Shown one piece after another: positions 1-17,286 of a stretch of DNA of 19,723 nt. The stretch is from the NCBI GenBank assembly GCA_041497675.1, contig JBGQGY010000066.1, forward strand, positions 1 to 19,723, given 5' to 3'. The notes below the pieces were generated by a model. It was not told the DNA's origin. It searched no databases and saw only the letters and a program-made list of their open reading frames with translations. Each line of letters starts with the position of its first letter. The stretch's first letter is position 1. Source of the DNA: a bacterium (GTDB lineage Bacteria; Sysuimicrobiota; Sysuimicrobiia; Sysuimicrobiales; Humicultoraceae). Both the position numbers and the translations under genes were made by a program.

Positions 1-651
1 CATCACGCCCGCCAGGGCGCCGATGTGGTGCGCCCAGATACCCGCGCAGTTGACGACCACGTCGGTGCGAATCGTGCCCCGATTCGTCACGACCGCCGCC
101 ACCTGCCCGTCGCGCACGGTGATGCCCGTGACTTCGGTCTCTGTGTGGATCTCGGCGCCGCGGGTCCTGGCGCCCTTGGCCAGCGCAAAGGTCAGCCCGC
201 TGGGATCGACGCTGCCGTCGGTGGGGAGATATGCCGCGCCGAGCAGCCCGCGCTCGCTCATGACCGGGAAGAGATCCACCGCCTGTTTTGGCGTCAGGAT
301 CTCCATCGGGAGTCCAAAGGTCTTGGCCGTCGCGGCATGACGACGCAATTCGAGCATCCGCTCGGGGGTGGAGCCCAGGCGCAGACTCCCGGTCTCTCGC
401 CAGTCCGGATCGTGCTCCGTTTCGGCCAGCAAGGTGCGGTAGAGTTCCACGCTGTACATGATCATGCGGGTGAGACTGACCGACCCCCGAAGCTGTCCCA
501 CGAGGCCCGCCGCATGGAACGTCGCGCCGCCGGTCAGACCGCCCTTCTCGACGAGGACCACATCGCGCCAGCCCATCTTCGTGAGGTGATAGGCGATGCT
601 GCATCCGTAGACGCCGCCCCCGATGATGACGGCCTGCGCGTCCGACTTCAC
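1..651 (-). CDS. FAD-dependent oxidoreductase, dimethylglycine/sarcosine dehydrogenase (GcvT-fused) family; 3' end lies outside the window
   Basis: Not in the ORF track (no stop in the window). Manual translation from GTG at 651, with AGGAGG at 659-664: MKSDAQAVIIGGGVYGCSIAYHLTKMGWRDVVLVEKGGLTGGATFHAAGLVGQLR...DGSVDP...VVNCAGIWA. Shows the Rossmann GxGxxG-like motif and the T(W/F)HAAG motif with the flavinylation His of DMGDH/SarDH. Confidence 0.92.
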   Translation of the reverse strand, partial: MKSDAQAVIIGGGVYGCSIAYHLTKMGWRDVVLVEKGGLTGGATFHAAGLVGQLRGSVSLTRMIMYSVELYRTLLAETEHDPDWRETGSLRLGSTPERMLELRRHAATAKTFGLPMEILTPKQAVDLFPVMSERGLLGAAYLPTDGSVDPSGLTFALAKGARTRGAEIHTETEVTGITVRDGQVAAVVTNRGTIRTDVVVNCAGIWAHHIGALAGVM

Positions 652-678
652 GAATGATCCTCCTGGCGTGCTCTCGTG

Positions 679-1479
679 CTACCGATCCAGAGGTGCGCGG
701 TCGGTCACGAACCGGAATCGATCTCCCCGATAGAGATCTTTACCGTATTCGATGGGCCGGCCCCGTGCGTCGAGCGACAGCCGTTCCTCCAGCATCAGCG
801 CTGCGCCGGGCGCGACGCCCAGCAGTCTGGCTTCAAACTCCGTGGCGATTGTCGGCTCGAGACTCTGCCGCGCGCGGTTCACCTTCACGCCGTACTCGGT
901 CTCCATGATCTCGTAGACGGAGCGCCGGGTCGTGTCGAACCGCTCAAATTTGGGGAAACGCCGCACCGGCATCCAAAACGTCTCGAGCATCACAGGCTCG
1001 CGATTCACTAGGCGCACGCGGCGGACGAGGTAGAGGGCCGAGGACACGGGCACGCGGAGTTGTCTGGCCACGGCCGCGCCGGCCGGTTGCTTTTCCAGCG
1101 TCACGACCTTCGCGCCGGGGCGGTAGCCGTACCTCGTCATCGTCCGGCTGAACGGGACGAGTCGCCCAGCCTGCCGCTCGATCTTGGGCCGCGCGACGAA
1201 CGTGCCCGAGCCCTGCCGCCGATCCAGATAGCCTTCGGTCTCGAGCTTGCTCAGGGCCGCCCGGAGGGTCATGCGGTTCACGCCGAGGGTCTCACTCAAC
1301 AGACGCTCGGCCGGCAGCCGTGCACCGGGACGCAGACCGCCCGATTCGATCTCGCTCAAGAGACTTTCCGCGATTTGCAGGTAGAGCGGCACACCTTCCG
1401 TAAAGCGGCTCGCCAGCCGCGAAGCGGCACCGGCGTTGGGCGTGGCGCGGGCGTTGCGCACGTGGTCTACCAATGACAT
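679..1479 (-). CDS. GntR-family transcriptional regulator, HutC subfamily (wHTH + UTRA domain)
   Basis: PLYLQIAE...LRPGARLPAERLLSETLGVNRMTLRAAL...GYLDRRQGSGTFV wHTH; UTRA C-terminus ending PIEYGKDLYRGDRFRF. Start uncertain (ATG 1479 or GTG 1461). Confidence 0.95.
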   Translation of the reverse strand: MSLVDHVRNARATPNAGAASRLASRFTEGVPLYLQIAESLLSEIESGGLRPGARLPAERLLSETLGVNRMTLRAALSKLETEGYLDRRQGSGTFVARPKIERQAGRLVPFSRTMTRYGYRPGAKVVTLEKQPAGAAVARQLRVPVSSALYLVRRVRLVNREPVMLETFWMPVRRFPKFERFDTTRRSVYEIMETEYGVKVNRARQSLEPTIATEFEARLLGVAPGAALMLEERLSLDARGRPIEYGKDLYRGDRFRFVTDRAPLDR

Positions 1480-1482
1480 AAT
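1454..1482 (+). promoter_or_regulatory. Putative sigma70-type promoter of the corrinoid methyltransferase operon
   Basis: TTGCGC (1454-1459), 17-nt spacer, CATAAT (1477-1482) preceded by extended -10 TG at 1474-1475. Confidence 0.6.
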
Positions 1483-1496
1483 GGTCTATACCATTA
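1479..1496. promoter_or_regulatory. Palindromic operator for the adjacent HutC-type GntR regulator (dre-like)
   Basis: TAATGGTCTATACCATTA, near-perfect 18-bp inverted repeat with a TGGTCTATACCA core like DasR/NagR/PhnF sites; shortened copy TGGTCTACCA at 1463-1472. Confidence 0.8.
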
Positions 1497-1522
1497 GACG
1501 CCGACGCCGTCGTGCATGTCAA
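1493..1522 (-). promoter_or_regulatory. Putative sigma70-type promoter of gntR-dehydrogenase unit
   Basis: On the minus strand TTGACA (1522-1517), 18-nt spacer, TCTAAT (1498-1493). The -10 lacks the conserved -11A, so support is moderate. Confidence 0.4.
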
Positions 1523-1557
1523 GAGAAGCCGACGCTGCGTGCCGTCGCACGCGCGCC

Positions 1558-2184
1558 ATGGTAGATCGGCTCACCTTCGATCCGGTCCATGTGGATCCGG
1601 ACCTGATCCTGCGGCTGCAGAAGTACCGGCAGCTCGACACTGTGCCGCAGGTCGTTAAGGATGTGGCGCGCCGAATGGCCGCATCGGCCGAAGGTCTCGT
1701 TGAGCCGCAGGGATGGGTGTGGCGCGGACCGGTCAATCGGGTCGATGCGACCGGGCACGTCCAGATCGGGGACGCGGTGCGCTTCGAGAGCCCCACCCTG
1801 GTGCGCGTACTCGAGGGTGCGACCGAAGTCGCCGTCGTGGTGCTCACGATCGGCCCACGGCTGGAGCGGCGGGCGCACGAGCTGATCGGCGAGGAACAGC
1901 TGGTGGAGGGGTTGTTGTTGGACACGGCTGGTTGGGTCGCCATCGATGCGCTGCTCAAAGACACGCGCCGGCGGCTGGCCGCGGACGCCAAACCGCAGGG
2001 TCGCCGGCTCACGGGGCGCATGGCTCCCGGGTTTGCGGGATGGGGGCTCGAGCAGCAGCGCGAGCTGTTCTCGGCCTTCGACGGCGCCGCGCTCTCGGTG
2101 CACCTGACTGACTCCTGTGTGATGATTCCTCGCAAATCCGTCTCAGGGATCTATGGTCTTGTCCCGGTGACCTATGCCGGGTGA
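1558..2184 (+). CDS. Stand-alone vitamin B12-dependent methionine synthase activation-domain-like protein
   Basis: VVLTIGPRLE...LLLDTAG...RMAPGFAGWGLEQQRELF...VHLTDSCVMIPRKSVSGIYG matches the short MetH reactivation-domain family (RxxPG(Y), MxPxKSVSG). Start ATG 1558 preferred; the ORF can extend to 1516. Confidence 0.85.
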   Translation: MVDRLTFDPVHVDPDLILRLQKYRQLDTVPQVVKDVARRMAASAEGLVEPQGWVWRGPVNRVDATGHVQIGDAVRFESPTLVRVLEGATEVAVVVLTIGPRLERRAHELIGEEQLVEGLLLDTAGWVAIDALLKDTRRRLAADAKPQGRRLTGRMAPGFAGWGLEQQRELFSAFDGAALSVHLTDSCVMIPRKSVSGIYGLVPVTYAG

Positions 2185-4024
2185 CACCGTCACGGTGCAG
2201 TTTGCGCCGGGCGAGCGCCGGGTCGCGGTGCCCACAGGCACGACGCTGCTGCGCGCCGCCCAACAGTCGGGCCAGGAGATCGTAGCGACGTGCGGTGCAC
2301 GCGGCCGTTGCCGCAGCTGCCGCGTACAAATCGTCGCGGGGCCGACCCCACCGGCGACGCTGGCCGACCGCGTCCATCTGGGCGATGACGAGGTCAGAGA
2401 ACGCTACCGTCTCGCCTGCCAGACCGAAGCCTGGGACGATCTCTCGGTCGTCGTTGCGCCGATCTTCGAAGAGACATCGTTCCAGATCCTCGCCGACACG
2501 AGCGCGCTGCGCTCGGCCGCGGGGTTCACGCTCGATTCCGGCGTCCGCAAGGAGTTCGTCACCCCGACCCCGCCGTCCAGCGAAGAGCACCCGGACTCGG
2601 ATCTCGAGGCGCTCCTCCGCACTCTCGACGGCGCGATCACCGACGTGTCCGTGGACGCCCTGCGGCGGCTGCCGGCGCTGCTGCGATCGGCGCCGGGGGT
2701 GACGGTGGCGGTGTTCGACGGCACGCTGCTCGGGATCGAATCCGGCGACACTCGCCGTGACGCGTACGGCGTGGGGTTCGACGTTGGTACGACGACGGTG
2801 GTCGGGTACCTAATCGATCTGTCGAGCGGCACGGTAGCCGCGACCGCCTCCGGTCTCAATCCGCAGGCGGCGTTTGGCGGTGACCTGATGTCGCGCATTG
2901 CGTTCGCGCAGGAAGGGCCGGCCAACGTCCGCCAGCTGCACACCCGAATCATCCAGTCGATGAACAGCCTGATCGACGAAGCGTGCGAGCGCGCGGGCGT
3001 CACGCGCGATCGCATCTACAAGGCCGCAGTGGTCGGCAACACGGTGATGCACCATCTGGTGCTGGGGATCGACCCGACGTTTGTTGGGCAGGCCCCCTAC
3101 GCCCCCAGCATCCGCCGCAGCGTCCGCGTCGCCGCATCAGACGTGGGGCTGCGGCTGAACCCGCCGACACCCGTCTTCTTGTTGCCGATCGTCGCGGGAT
3201 TCGTCGGCGCCGACGCGCTGGCCATGATCCTGTCTACGCGGATCTACGAGAGCCGAGAACCGCGGATCGCGGTGGACATCGGGACCAACGGCGAGATCGT
3301 CCTCGGTTCGCATGACGGTCTGATCGCCTGCTCGGCCCCCGCGGGGCCGGCGCTGGAGGGCGCGCAGTTGCAGTGCGGCATGCGCGCCGCCCGGGGCGCG
3401 ATCGATCAGGTTCGCATCGATGGAGCGGTGCACTACCACGTCATCGGGTCGGATGCGCCGTTGGGGATCTGTGGGTCGGGCATCCTGGATACGATCGCCG
3501 GTCTGCTCGACACCGACATCCTCGATGCCTCCGGGCGGCTGCATCCCGAGGCGCCGCAGGCGCTTCCGGACGATCTCCGCAGGCGTGTGATCACGCTCCC
3601 AGATGGTCTGACGGCTTTCGTGCTGGCGCGGGCGGCCGAGACCGCGACAGGTGCCGATATCCTCTTGACCCAGGCGGATATCCGGCAGGTGCAGCTGGCG
3701 AAAGGCGCGATCCGCAGCGGGATCGACATGCTGCAGCGGCTGACCGGCACACCAAACGATCGGCTCGCCGAGTTGATGCTGGCGGGCGGGTTTGGCAACT
3801 ACCTGAACATCCCCAATGCCATCCGGATCGGGCTCATTCCCCACCTCCCGGTGGAGCGCGTGTCGTACGTGGGCAACGCAGCCGGGCTGGGCGCACAGAT
3901 GGCCGTGATCTCCGAGAGCGAACGCCGGCGCGCCGACGAGATCGCGCTCACCGTGCGCCACGTGTCGCTGGCGACACATCCAGATTTCCAAGATGTCTTT
4001 TTGAACGCGTTGCAGTTTCGATAA
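2174..4024 (+). CDS. ATP-dependent reductive activator of corrinoid proteins (RACo/RamA-like; 2Fe-2S ferredoxin + ASKHA/DUF4445)
   Basis: N-terminal CGARGRCRSC...RLACQ 2Fe-2S motif; DVGTTT, NPQ..FGGDLMSRI, GNTVMHHL, DIGTNGE, AGPALEG, GICGSG, QLAKGAI, LAGGFG, GNAAG. Overlaps the upstream stop by 11 nt. Confidence 0.95.
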   Translation: MPGDTVTVQFAPGERRVAVPTGTTLLRAAQQSGQEIVATCGARGRCRSCRVQIVAGPTPPATLADRVHLGDDEVRERYRLACQTEAWDDLSVVVAPIFEETSFQILADTSALRSAAGFTLDSGVRKEFVTPTPPSSEEHPDSDLEALLRTLDGAITDVSVDALRRLPALLRSAPGVTVAVFDGTLLGIESGDTRRDAYGVGFDVGTTTVVGYLIDLSSGTVAATASGLNPQAAFGGDLMSRIAFAQEGPANVRQLHTRIIQSMNSLIDEACERAGVTRDRIYKAAVVGNTVMHHLVLGIDPTFVGQAPYAPSIRRSVRVAASDVGLRLNPPTPVFLLPIVAGFVGADALAMILSTRIYESREPRIAVDIGTNGEIVLGSHDGLIACSAPAGPALEGAQLQCGMRAARGAIDQVRIDGAVHYHVIGSDAPLGICGSGILDTIAGLLDTDILDASGRLHPEAPQALPDDLRRRVITLPDGLTAFVLARAAETATGADILLTQADIRQVQLAKGAIRSGIDMLQRLTGTPNDRLAELMLAGGFGNYLNIPNAIRIGLIPHLPVERVSYVGNAAGLGAQMAVISESERRRADEIALTVRHVSLATHPDFQDVFLNALQFR

Positions 4025-4037
4025 GGAGCGTGCGCCG

Positions 4038-4970
4038 ATGGCTGCGAGGGGCAAAGAACTGTTGGACCGGCTGAAGTCCGAAGTACTCGTCCTGGACGGC
4101 GCGATGGGCACGATGTTGTTTGACGCCGGGCTGGTCGACGGCGGGTGCCCAGAGTTGTGGAACGAGACGCGGGGCGATGTGGTCGCCGGCATCCATCGCG
4201 CGTACTACGAGGCCGGAGCGGACATCGTCGAAACCAATACTTTCGGCGGCACGCGGCTCAAACTGGCGCCTTACGAATTGCAGGACCGCGTCCGCGACCT
4301 CAACTATGCGGGGGCCCGTCTGGCGAGGTCGGTGTGTCCTCCGGGCAAGTACGTCGCCGGGTCGGTTGGGCCCACCGGGCATCTCCCGGACACGCTCGCG
4401 GCCATGGGGGACATCTCACTGGATCAGATGCGCGCGAGCTTCACCGAGCAGGTCATCGCGCTGGCCGAGGGCGGCGTCGACCTCTTCGCGATCGAGACTA
4501 TGATGATTCCCGACGAGGTCACCACCGCCATCAAGGCCGCCAAGGACGCCACCGATTTGCCGGTCATGGCGACCATGTTCTTTCAGTACAACAAGCACAA
4601 GAGCCTGGATCGCACGCTGTGGGGTTCATCCCCGGCGGACGTCGCCCGGCTGTTGTTCGACGCCGGGGCGGATATCGTGGGGTGCAACTGCGGCGAGGGC
4701 GGGCCCGGCCGCGCCGCCGTGATCATCCGCGAGATGCGGCAGGTGGCATCGGGGTTTCTTGCCGTCTATCCGAACGCGGGCATGCCAAAGCTCGTGGACG
4801 ATCGGACGGTCTACGAGCTACCGCCCGACGAGATGGCGGCAGGCTATCCTGCGATTCTCGACGCTGGAGCGAACGTTGTCGGTGCGTGCTGCGGCAGCAC
4901 GCCGGAGCATATCCGCCGCATCGCCGCCGTTGTGCACCGGGGCACCCTTGTGAAGGAGGGTCGGTCGTAG
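4038..4970 (+). CDS. Stand-alone homocysteine S-methyltransferase (MetH N-terminal Zn domain; methylcorrinoid:homocysteine methyltransferase)
   Basis: LDGAMGTML, PELWN, HRAYYEAGADIVETNTFG, GSVGPTG, IETM, GCNC, PNAGMP, GACCGSTPEHI (three Zn-ligand Cys present); AAGGAG RBS upstream. Confidence 0.95.
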   Translation: MAARGKELLDRLKSEVLVLDGAMGTMLFDAGLVDGGCPELWNETRGDVVAGIHRAYYEAGADIVETNTFGGTRLKLAPYELQDRVRDLNYAGARLARSVCPPGKYVAGSVGPTGHLPDTLAAMGDISLDQMRASFTEQVIALAEGGVDLFAIETMMIPDEVTTAIKAAKDATDLPVMATMFFQYNKHKSLDRTLWGSSPADVARLLFDAGADIVGCNCGEGGPGRAAVIIREMRQVASGFLAVYPNAGMPKLVDDRTVYELPPDEMAAGYPAILDAGANVVGACCGSTPEHIRRIAAVVHRGTLVKEGRS

Positions 4971-4972
4971 CC

Positions 4973-6352
4973 ATGGTGAGCTTCCTCGAGATCTGCAGAC
5001 GCGCCGCGACGGGCCCGATCGTGGCGCCCGACGACTTCGACATGGAGCGGTTCGTGCCGAGCCTGCGGAACGCGATCAAGAAACATGGGCTGCAGGCGCC
5101 ACCCAAGGACGTGATCATCCCCTGGGATGATGACCTGGCAGATCGTATCTATCTGGCCGCCAAGGATTTCCTGGTCGACACCGGGTGCTACTGCCCGGAC
5201 ACGAACCGGGTCATCATGTTCACGCGCGAAGAGCTGGAAGAATCGATCCACCATGCGCCCACGCAGTGCCCGCTCGGCGAGGGCAAGGAAGCCGGCTTCA
5301 TGCGCCCCCGCCGCCCGGAGGATCCACAGATCCCCTGGTGCCACGTGGGCGGCGGGATCCCCGTATCCTCCGATGAGATCGCGTCGGCCGTCGTCGAAGG
5401 CTACGCGCGAATCCCGCACGCCGACTCGATGAGCATTCCGGCGCTCACGCAGCTCCGCGGCATGCCGGTGCAGGCCGGCGCGCCGTCTGAAATCTATGCG
5501 GCGATCCAGTCGGTGCGGATGGGGCGCGATTCGATGCGGCGCGCGGGGCGGCCGGGTCTACCGATCATCAACCTGCTCTCATCGTCGGCATCGCCCATGG
5601 GCGTGCTGGCCGTGACCAACCGCGAGTACGGGTTGCGGCCGTCCGACGGATGGCTGATTGTCTCGCTCTCCGAGCTGAAGCTCGACTACAACGTATTGAA
5701 CAAGACCGCCGCGATCCTGTCCTTCGGGGGCAACGTGGGGTTTGCCGCAGGGGCCATCTATGGCGGGTTTGCCGGCGGGGTGATCGGCTGCGCGGTGCTG
5801 AACGCCGCGTATATCATGGTCGGGCCGCTGCTGGTCAACGCCACGTATCATCTGCTCTACTCGCTGCATATTGCGCAGTCGAACTCGACCGCGCGCGAAG
5901 TGCTGACCAGCGTCGCGCTCGGCTGTCAAGCCGTGAGCCGCAACATGCCCTTCCCCTATTTCGATCTCGGATACACGGCGGCCGGGACCGCCACCCCACA
6001 ACTCTACTGGGAGAGCGCCGCGCGGATCATTACCGATGTGGTCTCGGGGGCCAACATCGAAACCGTGCACCCGGCCAAAGGCATCCTGCTGGACAACTAT
6101 AGCCCGATGGAGATGCTGTTTGACTGCGAGGTGGCGCACGCGGCCGCCGGGATGACACGGCGGGATGCGAACGAGATCGTCAAGGCGCTGCTGGCGAAAT
6201 ATGAGCCGCATTTGAAGAATCCACCGGAGGGCCAGCGGTTCCAGGACTGTTTCAATATCGATACCCTTGAACCGACGCCACAACACTACGAGGTCTACAC
6301 GAACGCCAAAGCGGAGCTGCGCCAACTCGGGCTCCCGCTGCGGGGAGGGTAA
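4973..6352 (+). CDS. MtmB-family (monomethylamine:corrinoid methyltransferase fold) protein lacking pyrrolysine, 459 aa
   Basis: ATG 4973 with AAGGAGG at 4953-4959. Colinear with recalled Methanosarcina MtmB: RAATG, GCYCPDTNRVIMFTREE, LGEGKE, AGRPG, ELKLD, IYGGFAGG, ITDVVSG, AKG, PEGQRFQDCF, LRQLGL. No in-frame TAG. Confidence 0.9.
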   Translation: MVSFLEICRRAATGPIVAPDDFDMERFVPSLRNAIKKHGLQAPPKDVIIPWDDDLADRIYLAAKDFLVDTGCYCPDTNRVIMFTREELEESIHHAPTQCPLGEGKEAGFMRPRRPEDPQIPWCHVGGGIPVSSDEIASAVVEGYARIPHADSMSIPALTQLRGMPVQAGAPSEIYAAIQSVRMGRDSMRRAGRPGLPIINLLSSSASPMGVLAVTNREYGLRPSDGWLIVSLSELKLDYNVLNKTAAILSFGGNVGFAAGAIYGGFAGGVIGCAVLNAAYIMVGPLLVNATYHLLYSLHIAQSNSTAREVLTSVALGCQAVSRNMPFPYFDLGYTAAGTATPQLYWESAARIITDVVSGANIETVHPAKGILLDNYSPMEMLFDCEVAHAAAGMTRRDANEIVKALLAKYEPHLKNPPEGQRFQDCFNIDTLEPTPQHYEVYTNAKAELRQLGLPLRGG

Positions 6353-6356
6353 CCGG

Positions 6357-7034
6357 TTGGACGAGGCAGAGATTCTAGACGGGTTACGACAAGCCGTTCT
6401 GGATTACGACCACGAGGCCGGGACGCGCCTGGTCCGCCAGGGGCTGGACCAGGGGATTCCCCCGCTCCGTCTCATCGAGGAGGGGCTGTCGCGCGGCATC
6501 GCCGTCATCGGCGCGAAGTTTCAGGCGATGGAGATCTTCCTGCCCGAATTGATGATGGCGGCCAAGGTCTTCCTCGAAGCCATGAAGATCCTCGAACCCG
6601 TGATCCTGGCCTCCGGTGAGGGCAAGCACAAGCGCGGCGTAGCCGTGATCGGCACGGTGAAGGGTGACGTCCATTCGATCGGCAAGGATCTCTTTGGCAC
6701 CCTGCTGAAAGTCGCGGGCTTCGAGGTGCACAACCTGGGCGTCAACGTGCACCCGGGCAAGTTCATCGAAAAGGTCGAGGAAACCGGCGCGCAGATCGTC
6801 GGCCTGTCGGCGCTGATGACCACGACGATGCCATCGATGCGCGAGGTCATCGAGTTCTTCGAGGCCCGGGGGCTGCGGGAGAAACACACGATCATGATCG
6901 GCGGCGGCCCGGTGACCGAATCCTATTGCCGGAAGATCACGGCCGACGCCTATGGAGAGACGGCGCAGGACGGGGTGGATCTGGCGATCAAGTTCGTGGA
7001 GCAGATGCGGGCGGCAGGGTTAGGACGGCATTGA
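6357..7034 (+). CDS. Corrinoid (cobalamin-binding) protein, MtmC/MttC-like
   Basis: TTG start at 6357 with GGGGAGG at 6342-6348; cap domain EIFLPELMMAA; base-off/His-on motif GTVKGDVHSIGK, then GLSALMTTT and IGGG. Confidence 0.95.
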   Translation: MDEAEILDGLRQAVLDYDHEAGTRLVRQGLDQGIPPLRLIEEGLSRGIAVIGAKFQAMEIFLPELMMAAKVFLEAMKILEPVILASGEGKHKRGVAVIGTVKGDVHSIGKDLFGTLLKVAGFEVHNLGVNVHPGKFIEKVEETGAQIVGLSALMTTTMPSMREVIEFFEARGLREKHTIMIGGGPVTESYCRKITADAYGETAQDGVDLAIKFVEQMRAAGLGRH

Positions 7035-7092
7035 CGCGTGCATAGTATGATTGAGGCACCCAACCATCCCGCTGACGACGAGAGGAGAAACG

Positions 7093-7536
7093 ATGTCTGT
7101 CGCAGAGAACACCAAGCTTGATGAGGACTTCATGGCCGCCTGGAACGCGCACGACGCGGACCGCGCGATCGCGCTGCTGGCCGATGACGTAGTCTGGCAG
7201 GATGTCACCATCCCGGAGGCCATGCGTGGCAAGACCGCGGTCCGACAGTACATTCAAGGCTGGTTCAAGGCATTTCCGGACATGAAAGCCGTCGTGAAGA
7301 ACCGCGTCGTGACCGAAGAGCAGGTTGCAGCCGAGCTCGAATTCACGGGGACGAACACCGGCCCCTTGCAGATGGCGCCCGGCATGCCGGCGATTCCCGC
7401 GACCGGAAAGAAAGTCACGGGTAAGGGAACGTACTTCGTGCGCATTCGGAACGGCAAAGCAGCTACCGTCCACACATATCCCGACGCCGCCGGAATGATG
7501 ATGCAGCTTGGACTGGTCCCGCGGCCCGGCGCATAG
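7093..7536 (+). CDS. SnoaL-like ester cyclase / NTF2-fold protein
   Basis: ATG 7093 with AGGAG RBS; AWNAHD, FKAFPDM, FTGTNTGPL, IPATGKKV motifs. Confidence 0.9.
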   Translation: MSVAENTKLDEDFMAAWNAHDADRAIALLADDVVWQDVTIPEAMRGKTAVRQYIQGWFKAFPDMKAVVKNRVVTEEQVAAELEFTGTNTGPLQMAPGMPAIPATGKKVTGKGTYFVRIRNGKAATVHTYPDAAGMMMQLGLVPRPGA

Positions 7537-7551
7537 ATTGCGGACGCGCGA

Positions 7552-7836
7552 GTGGCCGAGTATCGCATCACGTACTGGAGAGATATCCCGTCACAGGTCG
7601 AGGCGTTCGCCGGTGCTGAGCGGGTGCGGCGCCTGCTGAGCAGCCGGTTCCAGGAGTTGATCGACGCCGCGGCGATGCGGCAAGGTCTGATTGGCACCGA
7701 TGCCTACCTGGAGGCGTGGCGGATGAGCCCTGTCCTCTCGATGCCCGGCACACCGAGCGAGGTCGCCGAGGCGCTTGCGGCAGGGCTCGAAGAGCAGTTC
7801 GCGGAAATACGGGACGGTGCCCTGAGCGGGCTCTGA
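7552..7836 (+). CDS. Small 'virulence factor' domain protein (Pfam Virulence_fact-like), function unknown
   Basis: YWRDIPSQV...RFQELIDAAAMRQG...DAYLEAWR signature; GTG start. Confidence 0.8.
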   Translation: MAEYRITYWRDIPSQVEAFAGAERVRRLLSSRFQELIDAAAMRQGLIGTDAYLEAWRMSPVLSMPGTPSEVAEALAAGLEEQFAEIRDGALSGL

Positions 7837-7860
7837 CAGCCAGGTGCACACTGTGGAGGG

Positions 7861-8682
7861 GTGGCCACGGTGGAGGTACACACCCGGTCCTCGGGTACGA
7901 TGCCCGAGATCTACGACCACCATCTCGGTCCCGTCCTCTTCGGGCCGTACGCCGCTGACCTGACGCGCCGTGTGACCATCCTTCCAGACGGTCCGGTCTT
8001 GGAGACCGCCTGCGGGACCGGCATCCTCACGCAGCGACTGCGCGCTCACCTCCCCGCGCGCACGCCCCTCGTCGCCAGCGACCTGAGCGACTCGATGCTC
8101 GAGTACGCTCGCGCAAAGCACGGCGAGATCGGTCACGTCGAGTGGGAGCAGGCGGACGCCGGCGCCCTGCCGTTTCCCACAGCCTCGTTTGCGGCCGTGG
8201 CCTGTCAGTTCGGTTTGATGTTCGTCCCAGACAAGAAGGCCGCGATTCATGAATGCCGTCGGGTTCTCGTTGACGGTGGATTGGTCGCCCTCAGTGTCTG
8301 GGACAGTTTCGCGCACAACCCTTTTGCCCGCGTGGCGGACGAAACCATCGCCGGTTTCTTCCCGACGGATCCTCCGCGCTTTTACGAGGAAGGCCCCTTT
8401 GGGTTCCATAATCCCAAGGTTCTGCGCGATCTACTTGACGCCAGCGGCTTTGGTCATGTGTGGATCGAGCGCGTCACCCTCGAGGCCCTCAGCCCCTCGG
8501 CGGAATCGTTTGCGGTAGGGCTCGTCCATTGCAATCCTGCAATCAAAGCACTAGAGGACCGTGGGGGCTCGCCCAACCCAATCGTCGCGGCTGTCGCTGA
8601 GGCGCTCGCGCGCCTGGGCGGTGAGCGTCCGTTTCGGTCGACGATGCAGGCTATCGTCGCGACGGGTCGCGCCGGCGCCTAG
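7861..8682 (+). CDS. Class I SAM-dependent methyltransferase (UbiE/Methyltransf_11-like)
   Basis: VLETACGTG motif I, SDLS..ML, ADAGALPF, CQFGLMFVPD, RVLVDGG. Alternative start GTG 7870 has better RBS spacing. Confidence 0.9.
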   Translation: MATVEVHTRSSGTMPEIYDHHLGPVLFGPYAADLTRRVTILPDGPVLETACGTGILTQRLRAHLPARTPLVASDLSDSMLEYARAKHGEIGHVEWEQADAGALPFPTASFAAVACQFGLMFVPDKKAAIHECRRVLVDGGLVALSVWDSFAHNPFARVADETIAGFFPTDPPRFYEEGPFGFHNPKVLRDLLDASGFGHVWIERVTLEALSPSAESFAVGLVHCNPAIKALEDRGGSPNPIVAAVAEALARLGGERPFRSTMQAIVATGRAGA

Positions 8683-9107
8683 AAATCCACCTCATCGAAC
8701 CACTCGCCGGCCAGCAGGTGCCGCTCGATCGCCCGGCGCACGAACGGAATTGTGCCGCTGGGGAGTGCGTCGACCGCACACCACCGGACGTCATCGCATT
8801 CACCGCGAGGGTACGCTTCGCCGGTCCACCGTCTCGTTCTCAAGAAGAAGTCCACGCCCTCACCACTCGCTGATCTGAAGTGCGCCACGCCGATCACATC
8901 CAGATCCCCGAAATCGATCTCCACCCCAATTTCCTCTCGACACTCGCGCGCGGCCGTCTGTGTGACCGACTCACCACCTTCGAGCCGGCCGCCGGCGAGA
9001 CCATAGTGTCCGTCCTCAAACCCGGTGCCGTGGCGTCTCACCAGGAGGACCTCGTTGGACCGCAGCAGGACGGTATGAACCGCGACGATCTGCCCGGACC
9101 CAGTCAT
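8679..9107 (-). CDS. NUDIX hydrolase
   Basis: Nudix box GGRLEGGESVTQTAARECREEIG; ATG 9107 overlaps the kinase stop (ATGA). Confidence 0.92.
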   Translation of the reverse strand: MTGSGQIVAVHTVLLRSNEVLLVRRHGTGFEDGHYGLAGGRLEGGESVTQTAARECREEIGVEIDFGDLDVIGVAHFRSASGEGVDFFLRTRRWTGEAYPRGECDDVRWCAVDALPSGTIPFVRRAIERHLLAGEWFDEVDF

Positions 9108-9994
9108 CTCGACTCCGCCAGCCACGCTGGGACGCGGGGGTCCCGCACCTGCGCCTCATACCGATCAAAATGCTTCCGCCCGTATCCCACAAAATCGTAG
9201 TCCAGATGCGAGACCGTCACCTGCACCATCGCCCACATCGCCTCGCGCAGGTCTGAGATGATCTTCATGAGCTTGAGACGCGCGACCGCCGTGGGCGTCA
9301 CGTGTCCAAAGTACGCGTGCAGCAGCACGGCCTCTTCCTCATCCGTGAGCAGATGATGCACGGCGAAGTTGCCGAGATCGAAGAACAGATCCCCCATCGC
9401 CGCGTACTCCCAATCGATGATCCACACGCGGTCTCCGTCGGCGATGAAGTTCGCGCGCAGCAGGTCATTGTGACAGGGCCGCGGCGGATCCGGTGGACCC
9501 AGCGCGGCGTCCAGACGGTTCGCCTGCGCCAGCATCCAGTCAAACCGTTCCGGCAGGGGCGCGCCGCGCGGCGCGGACCAGGCCAGGTAGTCGCGGACCG
9601 TCTGAAACGGGGAGAAGGTTCCGGGAAACGCCGGGCCCGTATGGTAGCGGCGCACCGCCTCCGCCACGCGGCGCAACATCGACGGCTGGTGCATCTCATC
9701 GGCGGGGACCGCTGTGCCGGGGATGAACCGCGTCACAAGAATGCCGGTGTCCTTGAAAAACGCCACAGCCTCGGGTGCCACGCCCGCCTGATGGGCGGCC
9801 GCATGACAGGCATGCTCGCGCGGTCGGTCGATGCCGAGGCGCCCGCTGTCATCCCCCGGGATGCGGACGACGTAGATCTGATCGCCAACACTCACTCTAT
9901 AGTTGACGTTGGTGATACCGCCGGGCAACGCCTCGACGACAAGGTCCTGACGGGATGCCCATCCCATGCGGGTGATGACATCGTCAAGCATCAT
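9104..9994 (-). CDS. Choline/ethanolamine kinase-family phosphotransferase (LicA/APH-like)
   Basis: LPGGITNVNYRV, LGIDRPRE, Brenner motif CHNDLLRANF, choline-kinase motif IIDWEYAAMGD..FDL. Confidence 0.9.
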   Translation of the reverse strand: MMLDDVITRMGWASRQDLVVEALPGGITNVNYRVSVGDQIYVVRIPGDDSGRLGIDRPREHACHAAAHQAGVAPEAVAFFKDTGILVTRFIPGTAVPADEMHQPSMLRRVAEAVRRYHTGPAFPGTFSPFQTVRDYLAWSAPRGAPLPERFDWMLAQANRLDAALGPPDPPRPCHNDLLRANFIADGDRVWIIDWEYAAMGDLFFDLGNFAVHHLLTDEEEAVLLHAYFGHVTPTAVARLKLMKIISDLREAMWAMVQVTVSHLDYDFVGYGRKHFDRYEAQVRDPRVPAWLAESR

Positions 9995-11060
9995 CTAGCT
10001 TCAGGACCCGCGGACTCTCGGCCGCGAAGCGGCACGCGACCCGCGCACCGATCGGAAACGCACCCGCGCGCGTGCTCTGGACATCCGCTGCCAGGTCGGC
10101 GCCGGAGTCCGCCGCGATCTTTATCCGCGTAATGGCGCCCAGGAAGGAATGGGAGGTGACCTGGCCCGCGAGCGTGCCCCCAGGCGCCTCACCAGGTAGC
10201 AGGGCCGTCACCTCGACCGACTCGGGCCGCACCAGCACCAGCACCTTCTGCCCCCGGGGCAACCCGTGTACCGCGGTCACCTTGAGCTGCAGGCCGCGGC
10301 AGTCCACGACGGACTCGCCACCGTCCACGACCTCTCCGCTCAGGCGGTTCATCGTACCAACGAACTCTGCCACGAAGGGCGTCGCCGGCGAGCCATAAAT
10401 CTCGGGGGCCGTCCCGAGTTGCTCGATCCGACCGGCGGACATCACGGCGATCCGATCGGAGATTGAGAGCGCTTCCTCCTGATCGTGCGTGACGTAAAGG
10501 GCCGTGATGCCCAGGTTCGTTTGAATGCGACGGATCTCTTCGCGCAACTGCACGCGGACGCGGGCGTCGAGCGCCGAGAGTGGCTCGTCCAGGAGCAGCA
10601 CTCGTGGCTCGATGGCGAGGGCCCGGGCGAGGGCGACGCGCTGCTGCTGCCCGCCCGACAGTTGATGCGGATACCGAGTGCGCGCCCGAGCCAGCCCGAT
10701 GAGGTCGAAGAGTCGCCCGACGCGCCGCTTCTGCTCATCCTGAGGGACCTTGCGCAACCGCAATCCGAACGTCACATTCTCTTCGGCGGTCATGTTGGGA
10801 AACAGGCTATACGCCTGGAACACCATGCCCATGTTGCGCCGGCTGGCCGAGAGATGGGTGATGTCTCGGTCCTGGAGCAACACGGTGCCGGCGTCGGGAT
10901 GCTCAAACCCGGCCACGATTCGCAACGCCGTCGTCTTCCCACACCCGCTCGGACCGAGTAGCGTGAGGAACTCGCCGGCGCCGACTGCCAGATCGAACTG
11001 CTCCAGCGCCACAACATCGCTGAAGTTCTTCCGCAGTCCGCGCAGTTCCAGGTAGGCCAT
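9984..11060 (-). CDS. ABC transporter ATP-binding protein (PotA/AfuC-like, TOBE C-terminus)
   Basis: Walker A GPSGCGKTT, Q-loop VFQAYSLFP, LSGGQQQR, LLLDEP, VTHDQEEA; ATG at 11060. Confidence 0.96.
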   Translation of the reverse strand: MAYLELRGLRKNFSDVVALEQFDLAVGAGEFLTLLGPSGCGKTTALRIVAGFEHPDAGTVLLQDRDITHLSASRRNMGMVFQAYSLFPNMTAEENVTFGLRLRKVPQDEQKRRVGRLFDLIGLARARTRYPHQLSGGQQQRVALARALAIEPRVLLLDEPLSALDARVRVQLREEIRRIQTNLGITALYVTHDQEEALSISDRIAVMSAGRIEQLGTAPEIYGSPATPFVAEFVGTMNRLSGEVVDGGESVVDCRGLQLKVTAVHGLPRGQKVLVLVRPESVEVTALLPGEAPGGTLAGQVTSHSFLGAITRIKIAADSGADLAADVQSTRAGAFPIGARVACRFAAESPRVLKLDDA

Positions 11061-11062
11061 CT

Positions 11063-11854
11063 CTATCTCGCCCCGGCCGCGTGCCCGGCTGCGCCCCGTC
11101 CGAAGACCTGAATGAGACCCATACACGCCCACGTCAGCGCAAAACTGATGATGGCAAGCGCCGACGGCTCATAGGCGCGATTTGCGCCGATGAGCTGCAG
11201 ATAGGGCCCGAACGCCGGTCGATCCAAGAGGCTCGCCATCGTGAACTCGCCGATGACGATGGCGAAGGTCAGAAACGCGCCGCTCAACACTCCCACGCGC
11301 ACGTTGGGAAGGATCACGCGGAACAAGATCGTCGACCACCCGGCGCCCAGGCTCTGCGCGGCCTGCGTGAGCGTGCGGACGTCAATGGCGCGCAAGGCCG
11401 TGTCGACCGAACGGTACACGTACGGCAAGGCCAACGTGACATAGCTGAACATCAGCAGCACGTCCGTGGCCCGCTCGCTGCCCGTCAACGGCAAGATCGA
11501 GGAACTGTTGTAGATCCGCAGGTATCCGAACACCAGCACGATGGCGGGGATCACCAACGGCAGCAGCGTGATGAATTCCACGACCGGCCGCAACCGAGGC
11601 AGGCGCAACTGGATCCAGTAGGCGGTCGGCACCACCAGGACGATACCCATGACAATCGTGGCGAGCGCCAGCACGATGGAATAGGTGATCGTCGCGCCGA
11701 ATTGCGGATCCGCGAGAACGATCCGATACGCTTCCAGGCTGTACCTCCCGCGAACGTACCGGAGCGAAAACTCAAACGTCGCCGCCAGCGGGACGAGGAA
11801 ATACAGCGCGCCGAGCAGCATTGCGAGCCACGATCCGAGGCGACTGCCTTTCAT
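11063..11854 (-). CDS. ABC transporter permease (PotC-like)
   Basis: Hydrophobic segments, EAA-like loop LTQAAQSLGA, GEF motif; ATG 11854 overlaps the upstream stop (ATGA). Confidence 0.94.
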   Translation of the reverse strand: MKGSRLGSWLAMLLGALYFLVPLAATFEFSLRYVRGRYSLEAYRIVLADPQFGATITYSIVLALATIVMGIVLVVPTAYWIQLRLPRLRPVVEFITLLPLVIPAIVLVFGYLRIYNSSSILPLTGSERATDVLLMFSYVTLALPYVYRSVDTALRAIDVRTLTQAAQSLGAGWSTILFRVILPNVRVGVLSGAFLTFAIVIGEFTMASLLDRPAFGPYLQLIGANRAYEPSALAIISFALTWACMGLIQVFGRGAAGHAAGAR

Positions 11855-12753
11855 CGCAACCACCTCTCGCTACGTCCGCGCAGCCAAATGTACGCTGCGT
11901 TCGATAGACCGGTGGTGACAATCATCCCTAACGCCAGCGCGTAACCGAGGTTCGGATTGTGTAGCACGTCCCCGCGAATCTGCGCATACAGGACGAGGGT
12001 GACGATGTTCAGCGAACTGCCGGTGAGCGCGTAGGCGGTCGCCACGGCGCCGAAGGCATTCGCGAACAGGAGCAATGTCGATCCAAGCAGGGGCGGCCAC
12101 AGGATAGGCATGGCGATGTACCGCCAGTACTCCCAGGTGCTTGCGCCGAGATTGGTCGCCGCTTCGCGCCATTCTCGTTTGAGCCCATCGATCGCCGGCG
12201 CGAGAATCAGCACCATCAATGGGATCTGAAAATACATGTACGTGAGCGTCAGGCCCGCGAAACTCAAGAGATTGAACCCTGCGTCGTAGATGTTGAATCC
12301 GAAGACGTTGATGAGCAGAGCCGTCACGAGCCCGGTTCGTCCGAGCGTCGCGAGGAAGGCAAAAGCCAGGGGTACGCCCGCGAAGTTGGAGGCGACGCCC
12401 GAAAAGGTCATGAGCGTCGGCCGCACCCAGGCGGGCAGGCCACCCGTCATCGCGGCATAGGCCAGGGCGAAGCCGACGAGTGCGCCGCCGAGCGCCGATG
12501 CCGCGCTGACTTTGATGCTGATCAGATAGGAGCTCAGGATGGTGGGGCTAAACAGGTCCCGGATGTTGGCCAGGGTGAGATGGCCTTGGGCGTCTTGCAG
12601 GCCGCCAACGACGAGCAGACCGGTAGGCAAGATCAAGAACATCAGGGCAAAGACAAAAAAGGGCATAACGCCCACCCACGCCCATGACACCCGACTGACT
12701 GGTGCCGACGGGGCAGGAGGGGGGGCGATTGTCAGGGGTCTTGCCTGTGCCAC
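11851..12753 (-). CDS. ABC transporter permease (PotB-like)
   Basis: Hydrophobic segments, YFQIPLM and EAA motif WREAATNLGA; GTG 12753 with GAAGG upstream (ORF can extend to 12774). Confidence 0.94.
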   Translation of the reverse strand: MAQARPLTIAPPPAPSAPVSRVSWAWVGVMPFFVFALMFLILPTGLLVVGGLQDAQGHLTLANIRDLFSPTILSSYLISIKVSAASALGGALVGFALAYAAMTGGLPAWVRPTLMTFSGVASNFAGVPLAFAFLATLGRTGLVTALLINVFGFNIYDAGFNLLSFAGLTLTYMYFQIPLMVLILAPAIDGLKREWREAATNLGASTWEYWRYIAMPILWPPLLGSTLLLFANAFGAVATAYALTGSSLNIVTLVLYAQIRGDVLHNPNLGYALALGMIVTTGLSNAAYIWLRGRSERWLR

Positions 12754-12771
12754 ATAGACCTTCTGCGCCCC

Positions 12772-12804
12772 CACCCCTCCCCCGGATTCACCGGGAGAGG
12801 GGTG
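12772..12804 (-). repeat. Intercistronic GC-rich stem-loop (REP-like / mRNA-stabilising hairpin) downstream of the solute-binding protein gene
   Basis: mRNA strand CACCCCUCUCCCGG-UGAAU-CCGGGGGAGGGGUG: 14-bp stem with one G:U pair; no U-tract. Confidence 0.75.
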
Positions 12805-12820
12805 CGCGGCACGTTGGGGG

Positions 12821-13927
12821 TTACTTCACATTCGCCCCGACAACGGTGTCCCACTGCTTCGTGATGGTTTGCTTCACTGGGCCCTGCTGCGCGAGCGTCG
12901 GGAAGAGCGCCTTGGCATAGGCATCCGCAGGCGGGAGCTTTGCCAGCATGTCGGCCGACACCTTGTTGTTCTTCACCATGTTCTGGAAGCGAATCGGGTG
13001 GCAGTACGCCTTGAGCAAGCCCAGCTGCCCGGCGTCCGAGTAGAGGTGCTCCATCCACAGCTTCGCCGCGTTCGGGTGAGGGGCGTACGCGCTGATCGCC
13101 TGGACGTACACGCCCGCCACGACGCCGGTCTTGGGCACGACGACGGCGACCTTGGGGTTACCCTTCAGCGTGTCGCGATCGGCCAGCGCGTTGTAGTCCC
13201 AGCGAATGATGATCGGCGTAGCGCCTTGGGCGAGCGACGCCACTTTGCCGATGACGGGTACGAAATTTCCGCGCTTGTTCAGATCCGCAAAGAACTTCAG
13301 ACCCGCATCCGCCGCTCCGGCCACATTCCCCTTCGAGACCGATAGACCCGCCGCGAACACGCCCTGAATCGCCTGATTCGACGTGCGGGGATCGCCGGCT
13401 AGGGCCACCGAATTCTTGTAGTCCGGCTTGAGCAAGTCTGCCCAGTCGGCCGGTTGGGTCTTGACGGTGTCGGCGTTGATCTCAAAGGTCAGGACGCCAT
13501 AGTAATCGCCGTACCAATACCCGTCCGCGTCCTTCGCGTCGTTTGGCATCGTGCTCCAGGTGGCAACCTTGTAAGGCTGGAGCAACCCGTCCTTCCTCGC
13601 CGATGGGCCAAAGGACAGACCGACGTCGATGACGTCCGGCGCCTGAGGCCCCTTGTTGCCCTTGTTGGCCTTGATGGCCTCGATCTCATCACCCGAGCCG
13701 GCGTCCGGATTCAACTCGTTCACTTTCAAGCCGTACTTCTGCTTGAAACTGTCGATGATTGCGCCATAACCGCACCAGTCGCGCGCCAGCGCGATCACGG
13801 AGAGCTGGCCTTCCGCCTTCGCGGCGGCCACGAGTTTGTCCATGGCCATTTGCCCGGTCGCGACCGGGACAATCGCCAGGATGACCATCGTGGCGATCGC
13901 CAACACGCGTGTCGATGTGAGCTTCAT
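12821..13927 (-). CDS. ABC transporter solute-binding protein (PotD/AfuA/ThiB-like class II SBP)
   Basis: ATG 13927 with GGGAGG RBS; Sec signal MKLTSTRVLAIATMVILAIVPVATG with no lipobox Cys; PDVIDVG, WADLLKPDYK, APHPNAAKLW motifs. Confidence 0.93.
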   Translation of the reverse strand: MKLTSTRVLAIATMVILAIVPVATGQMAMDKLVAAAKAEGQLSVIALARDWCGYGAIIDSFKQKYGLKVNELNPDAGSGDEIEAIKANKGNKGPQAPDVIDVGLSFGPSARKDGLLQPYKVATWSTMPNDAKDADGYWYGDYYGVLTFEINADTVKTQPADWADLLKPDYKNSVALAGDPRTSNQAIQGVFAAGLSVSKGNVAGAADAGLKFFADLNKRGNFVPVIGKVASLAQGATPIIIRWDYNALADRDTLKGNPKVAVVVPKTGVVAGVYVQAISAYAPHPNAAKLWMEHLYSDAGQLGLLKAYCHPIRFQNMVKNNKVSADMLAKLPPADAYAKALFPTLAQQGPVKQTITKQWDTVVGANVK

Positions 13928-14040
13928 GCCTCGCCTCCCTTGAAAATGAGGATGCCCAAAGAGTACCGTATCGGGGCTGCCAATTCCTTGTGCCACGCGC
14001 TCAAGGACTACGGCGGTGCCGTCACCAACTCCCCTACACG

Positions 14041-15781: not shown

Positions 15782-15845
15782 AGGCAGAGGGGGTTCGGGA
15801 GGATGCAGGGAAATCCTGTGCATCAGCCTTGCTGGAGGACGCTTC

Positions 15846-17285: not shown

Positions 17286-17286
17286 T

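Follow-up and report, generated by a model that had tools for sequence, protein, structure and literature searches.

The stretch of DNA analysed here, called the window throughout, comprises 19,723 nucleotides (nt) of contig JBGQGY010000066.1 (positions 1 to 19,723, forward strand; assembly GCA_041497675.1) from a bacterium of the Candidatus (Ca.) Sysuimicrobiota, with a G+C content of 62–69%. On its + strand the list of open reading frames (ORFs) and the sequence itself reveal a row of five packed genes (1558–7034), which is a candidate for a corrinoid system that methylates homocysteine. The first gene, ActD (1558–2184, +), encodes a stand-alone reactivation protein of methionine synthase (MetH), which is of the TM0269 type and binds S-adenosylmethionine (SAM, AdoMet), as assigned from Pfam, orthologues and AlphaFold. 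It is overlapped by 11 nt by the gene of a RACo/RamA-type ATP-dependent reductive activase with an N-terminal 2Fe-2S ferredoxin domain (RACo; 2174–4024, +). After a gap of 13 nt comes a MetH-type homocysteine S-methyltransferase module (HcyMT; 4038–4970, +), the candidate methyltransferase 2 (MT2), followed at 2 nt by a pyrrolysine (Pyl)-free MtmB homologue (4973–6352, +), the candidate methyltransferase 1 (MT1), and at 4 nt by a corrinoid protein (CorP; 6357–7034, +) of the methylamine type, which has a B12 cap and a Rossmann domain and starts with TTG. The starts at 1558 and 6357 are consistent with the alignments of the orthologues. The overlap of 11 nt and the gaps of 13, 2 and 4 nt show that the five genes are translationally coupled.

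These coordinates and the strand are exactly those of the original prediction, which was read from the letters, and the five family names proposed there are borne out by Pfam, structure matches and orthologues.

Protein families of the five-gene row

The Pfam family MtmB (PF05369) matches residues 5–454 of the MtmB homologue at 287.9 bits, and the MtmB of Methanosarcina barkeri (Protein Data Bank [PDB] entry: 1l2q) is matched with an E-value of 6.6e-55, such that the protein belongs to a known MT1 family of the three-component corrinoid systems. Its gene is an uninterrupted ORF of 459 residues with no in-frame stop, and Ile199 aligns with Pyl202 (X in 1l2q), in a column that is variable (I, M, L, G, V or F) among 30 homologues and is flanked by the almost invariant residues AGRPGLPI-N. 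Since the ORF is continuous and an isoleucine occupies the pyrrolysine position in a variable column, the window protein is, by its sequence, a Pyl-free member of the MtmB family and lacks the in-frame UAG that marks MtmB proper at the position of Pyl202. The pyrrolysine-free MtmB fold of the original prediction is thereby upheld. In-frame stops flagged in three distant MtmB matches are the natural stop codons at residue 458 and do not encode pyrrolysine.

The source databases call the relatives of this protein 'monomethylamine:corrinoid methyltransferase' or 'methylamine--corrinoid protein Co-methyltransferase', and the PF05369 score agrees with this label, but it is very improbable that the row is a monomethylamine (MMA) system as in methanogens. 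Besides the isoleucine at the pyrrolysine position and the missing UAG, no tRNA is found in the window and pyl genes are not seen, and the sole characterized Pyl-free MtmB acts on quaternary amines, its MMA activity being no more than residual, according to passages of the report on it (PMC13044021).

The HcyMT protein has 310 residues and consists of PF02574 only (S-methyl_trans, 236.6 bits). In the structure matches it is closest to MetH of Thermus (PDB entry: 8g3h; E 7e-50) and of Thermotoga maritima (1q7m; 7e-47), with weaker matches to betaine-homocysteine methyltransferase (BHMT; 1e-12) and to the S-methylmethionine-type homocysteine methyltransferase 5dml (7e-12). The cysteine of the GCNC motif and the two cysteines of the GACCG motif are invariant across the orthologues. 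These ligand motifs, together with PF02574 and the match to 8g3h, correspond to the homocysteine-binding zinc module of a split MetH, and a BHMT-type protein with direct transfer from betaine to homocysteine is not what is found, the E-value for BHMT being about 1e-12 versus 7e-50 for MetH. On these comparisons HcyMT is MetH-like and not BHMT-like, and sequence comparison identifies this MetH-type module as the only MT2 candidate in the window. It could be argued that HcyMT works alone, as an enzyme of the BHMT or S-methylmethionine type that merely happens to lie in the operon and has no part in the corrinoid system, as its single-domain build and its match of 209 bits to NF005718 (betaine-homocysteine methyltransferase; the alphaproteobacterial Bmt/MtgE model) might suggest, but there is hardly any probability of this, with a score below the cut-off of 338, a MetH match far above those to BHMT and 5dml, and a gene that is kept beside CorP, ActD and RACo.

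The corrinoid protein is matched in Pfam by B12-binding (85.6 bits) and B12-binding_2 (61.2 bits). It scores 198.6 bits on the MtgC model, 197.4 bits on TIGR02370 and 178.3 bits on MtbC, all under the respective cut-offs, and 118.6 bits on the B12 domain of MetH, which is lower than on the methylamine-type models. The DxHxxG, SxL and GG motifs do not vary among 12 orthologues, and with its cap and Rossmann domains the protein has the features of a free-standing corrinoid protein as well as those of the B12 module of MetH.

The Pfam model Met_synt_B12 gives 24.9 bits on ActD, marginally below the cut-off of 25, and PF02965 is matched by all of its 11 orthologues examined (11/11). A profile of the ActD orthologues matches TM0269 (PDB entry: 1j6r) with an E-value of 6e-6, the AlphaFold model (pLDDT 90.3) superimposes on 1j6r with TM-scores of 0.80/0.84, and the PDB matches listed for this model at E ≤ 1e-5 are all MetH activation domains. 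The residues R154, A156, P157 and G158 are invariant in the 11 orthologues, and the stretch R154–G158 is taken here to be the AdoMet-binding RxxxGY motif. ActD has, by these features, the identity of the AdoMet reactivation domain of a split MetH. The nearest precedent is found in T. maritima, where the reactivation domain accompanying TM0268 is likewise a separate small protein, TM0269, which is the best sequence and fold match of ActD; unlike in the window, the homocysteine, pterin and B12 modules are there in one chain (TM0268) and there is no MT1, and the identity between ActD and TM0269 is about 15%. TM0269 is reportedly needed to reactivate MetH of T. maritima, as Huang is said to have found in 2007.

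The second reactivation protein, RACo, is matched by RACo_C_ter (264 bits), Raco_middle (189 bits), RACo_linker (35.3 bits) and Fer2 (42.1 bits), such that the Fer2, linker, middle and C-terminal domains of an ATP-dependent reductive activase of the RamA/RACo kind are all present; it scores 429 bits on the AcsV model and 140 bits on the RamA model, both under cut-off. When judged by the families of its products, the operon is a chimera of two known B12 machineries, because the MT1, the corrinoid protein and the activase are of the methylamine-system type and the homocysteine module and the reactivation protein are of the MetH type.

Conservation of the gene set in related genomes

The related loci were surveyed in one genome per species by scanning with an alignment of 30 MtmB homologues, giving 68 loci, and the occurrence of the parts was scored by tblastn and profile HMMs on all six-frame ORFs. 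There are 14 close loci (L001–L014), with MtmB identities of 81–98%, in Ca. Fervidifonticultor (Ca. Sysuimicrobiota), in metagenome-assembled genomes (MAGs) labelled Armatimonadota and in Methylomirabilota/NC10, and 54 distant loci (L015–L068), with identities of 39–49%, in Chloroflexota, Thermodesulfobacteriota, Planctomycetota, Spirochaetota, Bathyarchaeia and others. The same separation is seen in a search of 5.8 billion proteins, in which 19 clusters are 76–98% identical to the MtmB homologue and the next are at most 46% identical. The DNA of L001 is 92% identical to that of the window.

HcyMT is found at all close loci but L009 and L012, which start too late on their contigs (12/14), and at none of the 54 distant loci. 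The other parts behave likewise: ActD is present at 12 of 14 (L001 and L006 start inside RACo) and RACo at 13 of 14 (none adjoins in L010, and it is in pieces in L009), both again with 0/54 among the distant loci, and the corrinoid protein is present at 13 of the 14 close loci, being cut by the contig end in L013. The gene of an enzyme like dimethylglycine oxidase (DMGO) is found at 11 of the 14 close loci and in the window, and at 0 of 54 distant loci. The gene order differs between phyla, being ActD-RACo-HcyMT-MtmB-CorP in the Sysuimicrobiota type and HcyMT-(transporter)-DMGO-MtmB-CorP-ActD-RACo in the Methylomirabilota, and the linkage has thus survived rearrangement. As the set recurs at 12 of the 14 related loci, which belong to two phyla and differ in gene order, the arrangement is beyond chance. 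The gene-neighbourhood survey proposed with the original prediction has in this way found the set to be conserved, with HcyMT beside the close MtmB genes in two phyla.

A tree of the MtmB family was calculated from 95 rows, after removal of matches aligned over less than 400 residues, the truncated L013 among them, and of three rows that were aligned past a stop codon. The 14 MtmB rows linked to HcyMT form one clade (SH-aLRT 100) on a stem of 0.97 changes per site, and the rows of Methylomirabilota are nested within it. When L008–L012 are set against L002–L007, the identities to the window are 81–88% for MtmB, 66–80% for RACo, 70–88% for HcyMT and 57–71% for ActD. RACo, HcyMT and ActD have diverged more than MtmB. 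The nesting of the rows suggests that the cluster has moved between phyla.

Several of the loci carry insertions or disruptions. Between HcyMT and MtmB, where the window has its 2-nt junction, a toxin-antitoxin-like pair is inserted in L006 (1455–2076) and L013 (9303–9957), which breaks this junction; the pair includes a PemK/MazF toxin, with a weak CopG-like ORF upstream in L006. Near the cluster of L010, where RACo is missing beside ActD, there is a reverse transcriptase/maturase of a group II intron (12217–13635), and in L009 (5586–7779) RACo is split over several frames, by a frameshift or an assembly error. The distant Pyl-free MtmB genes (L015–L068) often occur as 2–4 tandem paralogues with one corrinoid protein (e.g. 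L016, L021, L022, L025, L039 and L044); genes of the MTTB family are sometimes near them (L022, L025), and pairs of class III aminotransferases often are.

The methyl acceptor and the folate question

No gene for a pterin-binding protein, for methylenetetrahydrofolate reductase (MTHFR), for a URO-D-type protein or for MtrH is found in the window by Pfam searches of the ORFs, by tblastn with the pterin proteins of sister loci and by a pterin profile on six-frame ORFs of at least 60 residues, and no coenzyme M (CoM) methyltransferase (URO-D family, MtqA/MtbA type) occurs among the scanned window ORFs. The methyl-tetrahydrofolate (methyl-THF) module of a split MetH is thus missing within the window, and the observation of the original prediction that the operon lacks a pterin or CoM methyltransferase holds. 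In five of the 14 close loci, however, a methyl-THF:corrinoid methyltransferase gene lies directly 5' of ActD in the same operon (L002:5681–6547, overlapping the ActD start by 4 nt; L004:5377–6537; L005:3809–4603; L013:4543–5826; and also L003). The sister pterin protein scores 310.6 bits on NF005719 (methyl-THF:corrinoid methyltransferase; cut-off 259), and in three of these loci an MTHFR gene with a DUF5981 C-terminal domain lies upstream of the pterin gene (L004:4106–5692; L005; L013, there in two pieces). A LuxR-type regulator is found in place of a GntR-type one in the pterin-bearing operons. No pterin gene is seen within the available flanks of L007, L014 and the five Methylomirabilota loci (L008–L012). 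L013, which has the pterin gene, and L014, which does not, both have MtmB proteins 92% identical to that of the window, which indicates that gain, loss or relocation of the pterin module takes place within a short time.

By their gene content, the pterin-bearing sister operons are complete split methionine synthases with an added MT1, rather than MetH with its pterin module replaced. The original prediction had called the system folate-independent and had the MtmB-fold protein take the place of the pterin domain, and this part does not stand: for part of the family folate independence is contradicted in cis by the gene content, and with the pterin methyltransferase in five of the 14 sister loci and a folate-binding DMGO-like neighbour it is not established for the window either. 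The proposal of the homocysteine module as acceptor has fared better, as this MetH-like module is the sole methyl-acceptor enzyme found in all 12 informative loci. Taken as a whole, the gene set predicted at the start is real and conserved, and a homocysteine-directed corrinoid relay fed by the MtmB homologue is likely from the sequence comparisons, without the folate independence claimed for it.

The reading that is somewhat favoured is a direct relay, in which a methyl group would pass from the donor via MT1 to the corrinoid protein, and from there via the MetH-type module to homocysteine. In such a relay the GntR-type regulator would sense a methylated amine, which the neighbouring PotD-like ABC transporter would import (both are described below), and MT1 would transfer one N-methyl group to Co(I) of the corrinoid protein. 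Homocysteine, its thiolate activated by zinc, would then receive the methyl group of methyl-Co(III) through the MetH-type module, to yield methionine. Corrinoid oxidized to Co(II) would be rescued by RACo, using ATP and electrons, by ActD, by reductive methylation with SAM, or by both. The demethylated tertiary amine might then be oxidized by the adjacent DMGO-like, folate-binding enzyme, which would take the next methyl group, and in the sister genomes with pterin methyltransferase and MTHFR in the operon the corrinoid-bound methyl group could exchange with the folate pool. The direct relay is favoured because no acceptor enzyme other than the homocysteine module is conserved throughout the clade; the pterin module occurs at just 5 of the 14 close loci, which points to homocysteine and not THF as the constant acceptor. 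It is also favoured by the distance of 2 nt between the MT1 and HcyMT genes, in contrast to Rhodobacterales, where the two are regulated inversely: passages of a study of Phaeobacter describe mtgE as going down when mtgB is induced, which is taken there as competition of MtgB and MtgE for MtgCD (bioRxiv 10.64898/2025.12.19.695462). The setting, which is catabolic in style (transporters, a regulator of the GntR or LuxR type, no riboswitch), points in the same direction.

Several observations weigh against such a relay. A catabolic flux onto homocysteine requires that homocysteine is regenerated, and no gene for this is present in the window. The pterin methyltransferase in five of the 14 orthologous operons, three of them with MTHFR, makes a THF-directed flux possible, such that the main flux in the family could go to THF and HcyMT could be biosynthetic only, by analogy with what has been proposed for MtgBCDE. 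Stand-alone relatives of HcyMT at 65% identity or more fall into at least 120 clusters, versus the 19 clusters of the MtmB clade at 76% or more, and this excess weakly suggests that this type of HcyMT also works without this MT1.

In a stricter form, corresponding to that of the original prediction, no pterin module would serve this corrinoid protein, and the operon would encode a methionine synthase driven by the donor and independent of folate, a counterpart of BHMT that depends on B12. The missing pterin gene in the 19.7-kb window, in L007, in L014 and in the flanks of the five Methylomirabilota loci is in agreement with this, as is the close spacing of MT1 and HcyMT when compared with the Rhodobacterales, where the homocysteine module is instead down when MT1 is induced. 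Nevertheless, this form is tentative at best, as sister loci with MtmB identities of 85–92% (L002–L005, L013) keep the pterin gene, three of them with MTHFR, the module could sit elsewhere in the genome, and the adjoining DMGO-like enzyme itself binds folate. It is possible, and similarly tentative, that in the loci of the window type and of the Methylomirabilota type the homocysteine module is the sole acceptor, these loci encoding an MtmB-fold relay from a quaternary amine to homocysteine without methyl-THF, whose product is fed to the DMGO-like oxidase.

Alternatively, HcyMT, the corrinoid protein, ActD and RACo could form, with a pterin protein encoded elsewhere, a housekeeping methionine synthase whose corrinoid protein is borrowed by the MtmB homologue, the methyl group going mainly to THF for oxidation or assimilation. 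The precedent is the MtgBCDE system of Rhodobacterales. According to passages of PMC12478193 (2025), genetics in Ruegeria pomeroyi show that the corrinoid protein MtgC and the pterin protein MtgD are required in two processes, the synthesis of methionine and the demethylation of glycine betaine by MtgB, a member of the MttB family; MtgE is the PF02574 homocysteine module, and RamA and DUF1638 are induced. In Phaeobacter inhibens, passages of PMC5764234 (2018) describe a three-part MetH and a RamA-like reactivation of split MetH. The window resembles these systems in having, in a non-methanogen, a methylamine-family MT1, a separate corrinoid protein, a PF02574 module and an activase of the RamA/DUF4445 type, and its sister loci add the pterin module (cf. 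MtgD) in five of 14 cases and MTHFR (cf. MetF2) in three. This occurrence of the pterin gene in cis and the larger number of HcyMT relatives than of MtmB-clade clusters also speak for such a shared methionine synthase. Yet it is rather unlikely here, because the pterin gene is the least conserved member of the set, because HcyMT travels with MT1 through rearrangements and in two phyla, and because the regulators (GntR or LuxR), the transporters, the catabolic neighbours and the missing SAM or B12 riboswitch are unlike those of a housekeeping methionine gene. The direct relay also differs from MtgBCDE in its components: the MT1 of the window has the MtmB fold (PF05369), whereas that of Ruegeria has the MttB fold (PF06253); its parts are in one operon with MT1 adjoining the homocysteine module, whereas the Rhodobacterales genes are scattered; reactivation would be by a PF02965/TM0269-type protein and not by DUF1638; and a pterin module is absent in cis. 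DUF1638 is not seen among the scanned window ORFs and is present in the distant locus L017.

Other known systems share one half of the arrangement. In Methanococcoides methylutens, the Pyl-free MtmB protein MtqB methylates its corrinoid partner from tetramethylammonium and better from choline, and passages of the same report term this the first demonstrated function of a non-Pyl MtmB (PMC13044021, 2026). The window is like MtqB/MtqC/MtqA, by family and neighbour only, in having a Pyl-free MtmB homologue with an adjacent corrinoid protein, and unlike it in the acceptor, which is a CoM methyltransferase in that methanogen and a MetH-type homocysteine module in these bacteria. The anaerobic THF-directed systems (Desulfitobacterium MtgBCA; distant loci L017, L018, L023 and L052) combine an MT1 and a corrinoid protein with a pterin-type MT2, and the MtmB loci of this type have no homocysteine module, ActD or RACo within their flanks (0/54). 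One of these, L017 of a member of the Syntrophaceae (10001–19783), holds MtmB, CorP, a pterin methyltransferase, MTHFR, DUF1638 (the protein tied to B12 reactivation in Phaeobacter) and a PotD-like ABC transporter, and is an anaerobic, THF-directed counterpart. MesA–MesD are described in passages of PMC7857596 as MetE-like core methionine synthases fed by corrinoid proteins. The formation of methionine from a methyl-corrinoid protein without methyl-THF is, as a concept, shared with MesA, MesB and MesC, but the Mes proteins are MetE-like and are fed by MtrA or CoFeSP, whereas here the homocysteine module is MetH-like (PF02574) and a methylamine-family MT1 loads the corrinoid.

In the literature, supplementary files not being covered, no account was found of a MetH-type homocysteine module linked with an MT1 of the MtmB family, and members of the MtmB clade of the window might appear in the phylogeny supplements of PMC13044021. 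No passage on methyltransferases or corrinoids was found in the Ca. Fervidifonticultor paper (PMC11604079); the available passages of PMC11264602 list mtmB in MAGs without this gene context, and those of PMC10418091 concern a different cluster type. The novelty asserted in the original prediction therefore holds for the hybrid, which is undescribed in the literature found, but not for its two elements: a non-Pyl MtmB, MtqB, was characterized in 2026 and the link of a methylamine-family MT1 with a split MetH, by way of a corrinoid protein common to both, was shown by genetics in 2025, as reported in passages of PMC13044021 and PMC12478193, respectively.

Pyl-free MtmB homologues are widespread and have one known function, from 2026, and this clade places them in another setting, a bacterial one, whose acceptor is clear and can be tested. 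Should the relay be real, methylated amines from the environment, together with B12, could directly sustain the supply of methionine in Ca. Sysuimicrobiota and Methylomirabilota, which would affect the genome-based prediction of methionine auxotrophy, B12 demand and osmolyte turnover; it would also mean that modules of MetH and of methylamine methyltransferases can be mixed around one corrinoid protein, which is of interest for enzyme evolution and biocatalytic methylation. If the homocysteine module is the sole acceptor, this would be the first physiological role of a Pyl-free MtmB outside methanogens together with a MetH-derived, folate-independent route to methionine. If a pterin module is encoded elsewhere, the locus would be a further case of the MtgBCDE principle, built on another MT1 fold.

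Neighbouring genes, regulation and the methyl donor

Divergently from the operon, a gene on the − strand (679–1479) encodes a GntR/HutC-type regulator with a UTRA domain (GntR 76.5 bits, UTRA 135.9 bits), orthologues of which (55–63% identity) lie beside MtmB paralogues in Chloroflexota loci. The divergent intergenic region of 78 nt contains a 12-nt near-palindrome (1482–1493), found by sequence reading, which is operator-like and, as we assume, resembles the operators of the HutC family; a related half-site at about 1462–1471 overlaps the first codons of the GntR gene. No riboswitch or other RNA family is found in the window with Rfam (E ≤ 0.1), and a promoter/terminator scan of the window stays at chance level. 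The adjacent GntR/UTRA regulator and the missing SAM or B12 riboswitch fit an expression that would be induced by the substrate and not repressed by methionine.

Beyond the regulator, the window edge cuts the gene of the DMGO-like enzyme (dimethylglycine oxidase/dehydrogenase; 1–651, −), leaving its N-terminal 217 residues (DAO, 176 bits). The orthologue in L004 has 842 residues with the domains DAO, FAO_M, GCV_T and GCV_T_C, and its residues 31–841 match the DMGO of Arthrobacter (PDB entry: 1pj5) with an E-value of 1.9e-166; it also matches mammalian dimethylglycine dehydrogenase (DMGDH). In L003 a class III aminotransferase beside the DMGO gene matches GntE, below cut-off.

Downstream of the corrinoid protein, and possibly in the operon, lies the gene of a small SnoaL-like protein (7093–7536, +; SnoaL_2, 85 bits), whose orthologue follows the corrinoid gene in L006. 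Next is a small protein of PF13769 ('Virulence_fact'; 7552–7836, +; 57.8 bits), which may be a sixth component of the system, as orthologues with 60–70% identity are located right after CorP in five of the 14 close loci (L002:12095–12427, L003:12100–12432, L005:12212–12490, L006:4808–5110 and L007:12111–12389). Its AlphaFold model (pLDDT 77.3) has no fold match in the PDB at E ≤ 0.001, the Atlas returns only its own family, and a literature search for PF13769, Virulence_fact or IPR025989 gave nothing relevant among the first 10 of 44 papers. The last + strand gene of the row (7861–8682) encodes a class I SAM-dependent methyltransferase (Methyltransf_25, 72.8 bits) that is absent from all of the 68 loci; as a speculation, it is conceivable that this enzyme is tied to methyl disposal, SAM being derived from methionine.

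Next come genes that probably serve uptake and later steps. A PotD/PhnS-like ABC transporter lies on the − strand, with its ATPase at 9984–11132, the permeases at 11063–12774 and the binding protein, which is weakly PhnS-like, at 12821–13996. It is flanked by two paralogous kinases like choline/ethanolamine kinase (9104–9994, −; 13990–14949, +), for which the guanitoxin N-oxide kinase GntI ranks first among the NCBIfam models (268 and 231 bits, cut-off 357), the choline kinase models being below cut-off as well. Orthologues of the kinases are located downstream of the operon in L002, L004, L005 and L007. Orthologues of the transporter (49–57% identity) lie beside MtmB paralogues in the Chloroflexota locus L022, and similar transporters flank MtmB in L017 and L033. 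The window also encodes a GATase/C26 protein, an aldehyde dehydrogenase that resembles BADH/HpaE below cut-off, an EamA transporter and a RidA-like protein.

These neighbours bear on the methyl donor. The DMGO-like enzyme suggests that the product of MT1 is a tertiary N-methyl amine, the classical pair being glycine betaine and dimethylglycine, and it fits a demethylation series from quaternary via tertiary to secondary amine. Glycine betaine is a serious candidate, although at less than even odds. Two features weigh against it: the binding protein of the transporter is PotD/PhnS-like, whereas glycine betaine or choline is usually bound by the OpuAC type, and a glycine betaine pathway has no use for the kinases. 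The kinase genes, together with the choline activity of MtqB, point to N-methylated amino alcohols, and choline or another such compound is a less likely donor than glycine betaine; some other compound could quite conceivably serve. The PotD/PhnS-like transporter and the GntR orthologues beside MtmB paralogues, with similar transporters at L017 and L033, fit a cationic amine better than a classical OpuAC substrate. At L033 a HAD hydrolase and the PotD-like transporter lie by MtmB, a combination that may point to N-methylated aminoalkyl compounds, perhaps phosphonates, as substrates.

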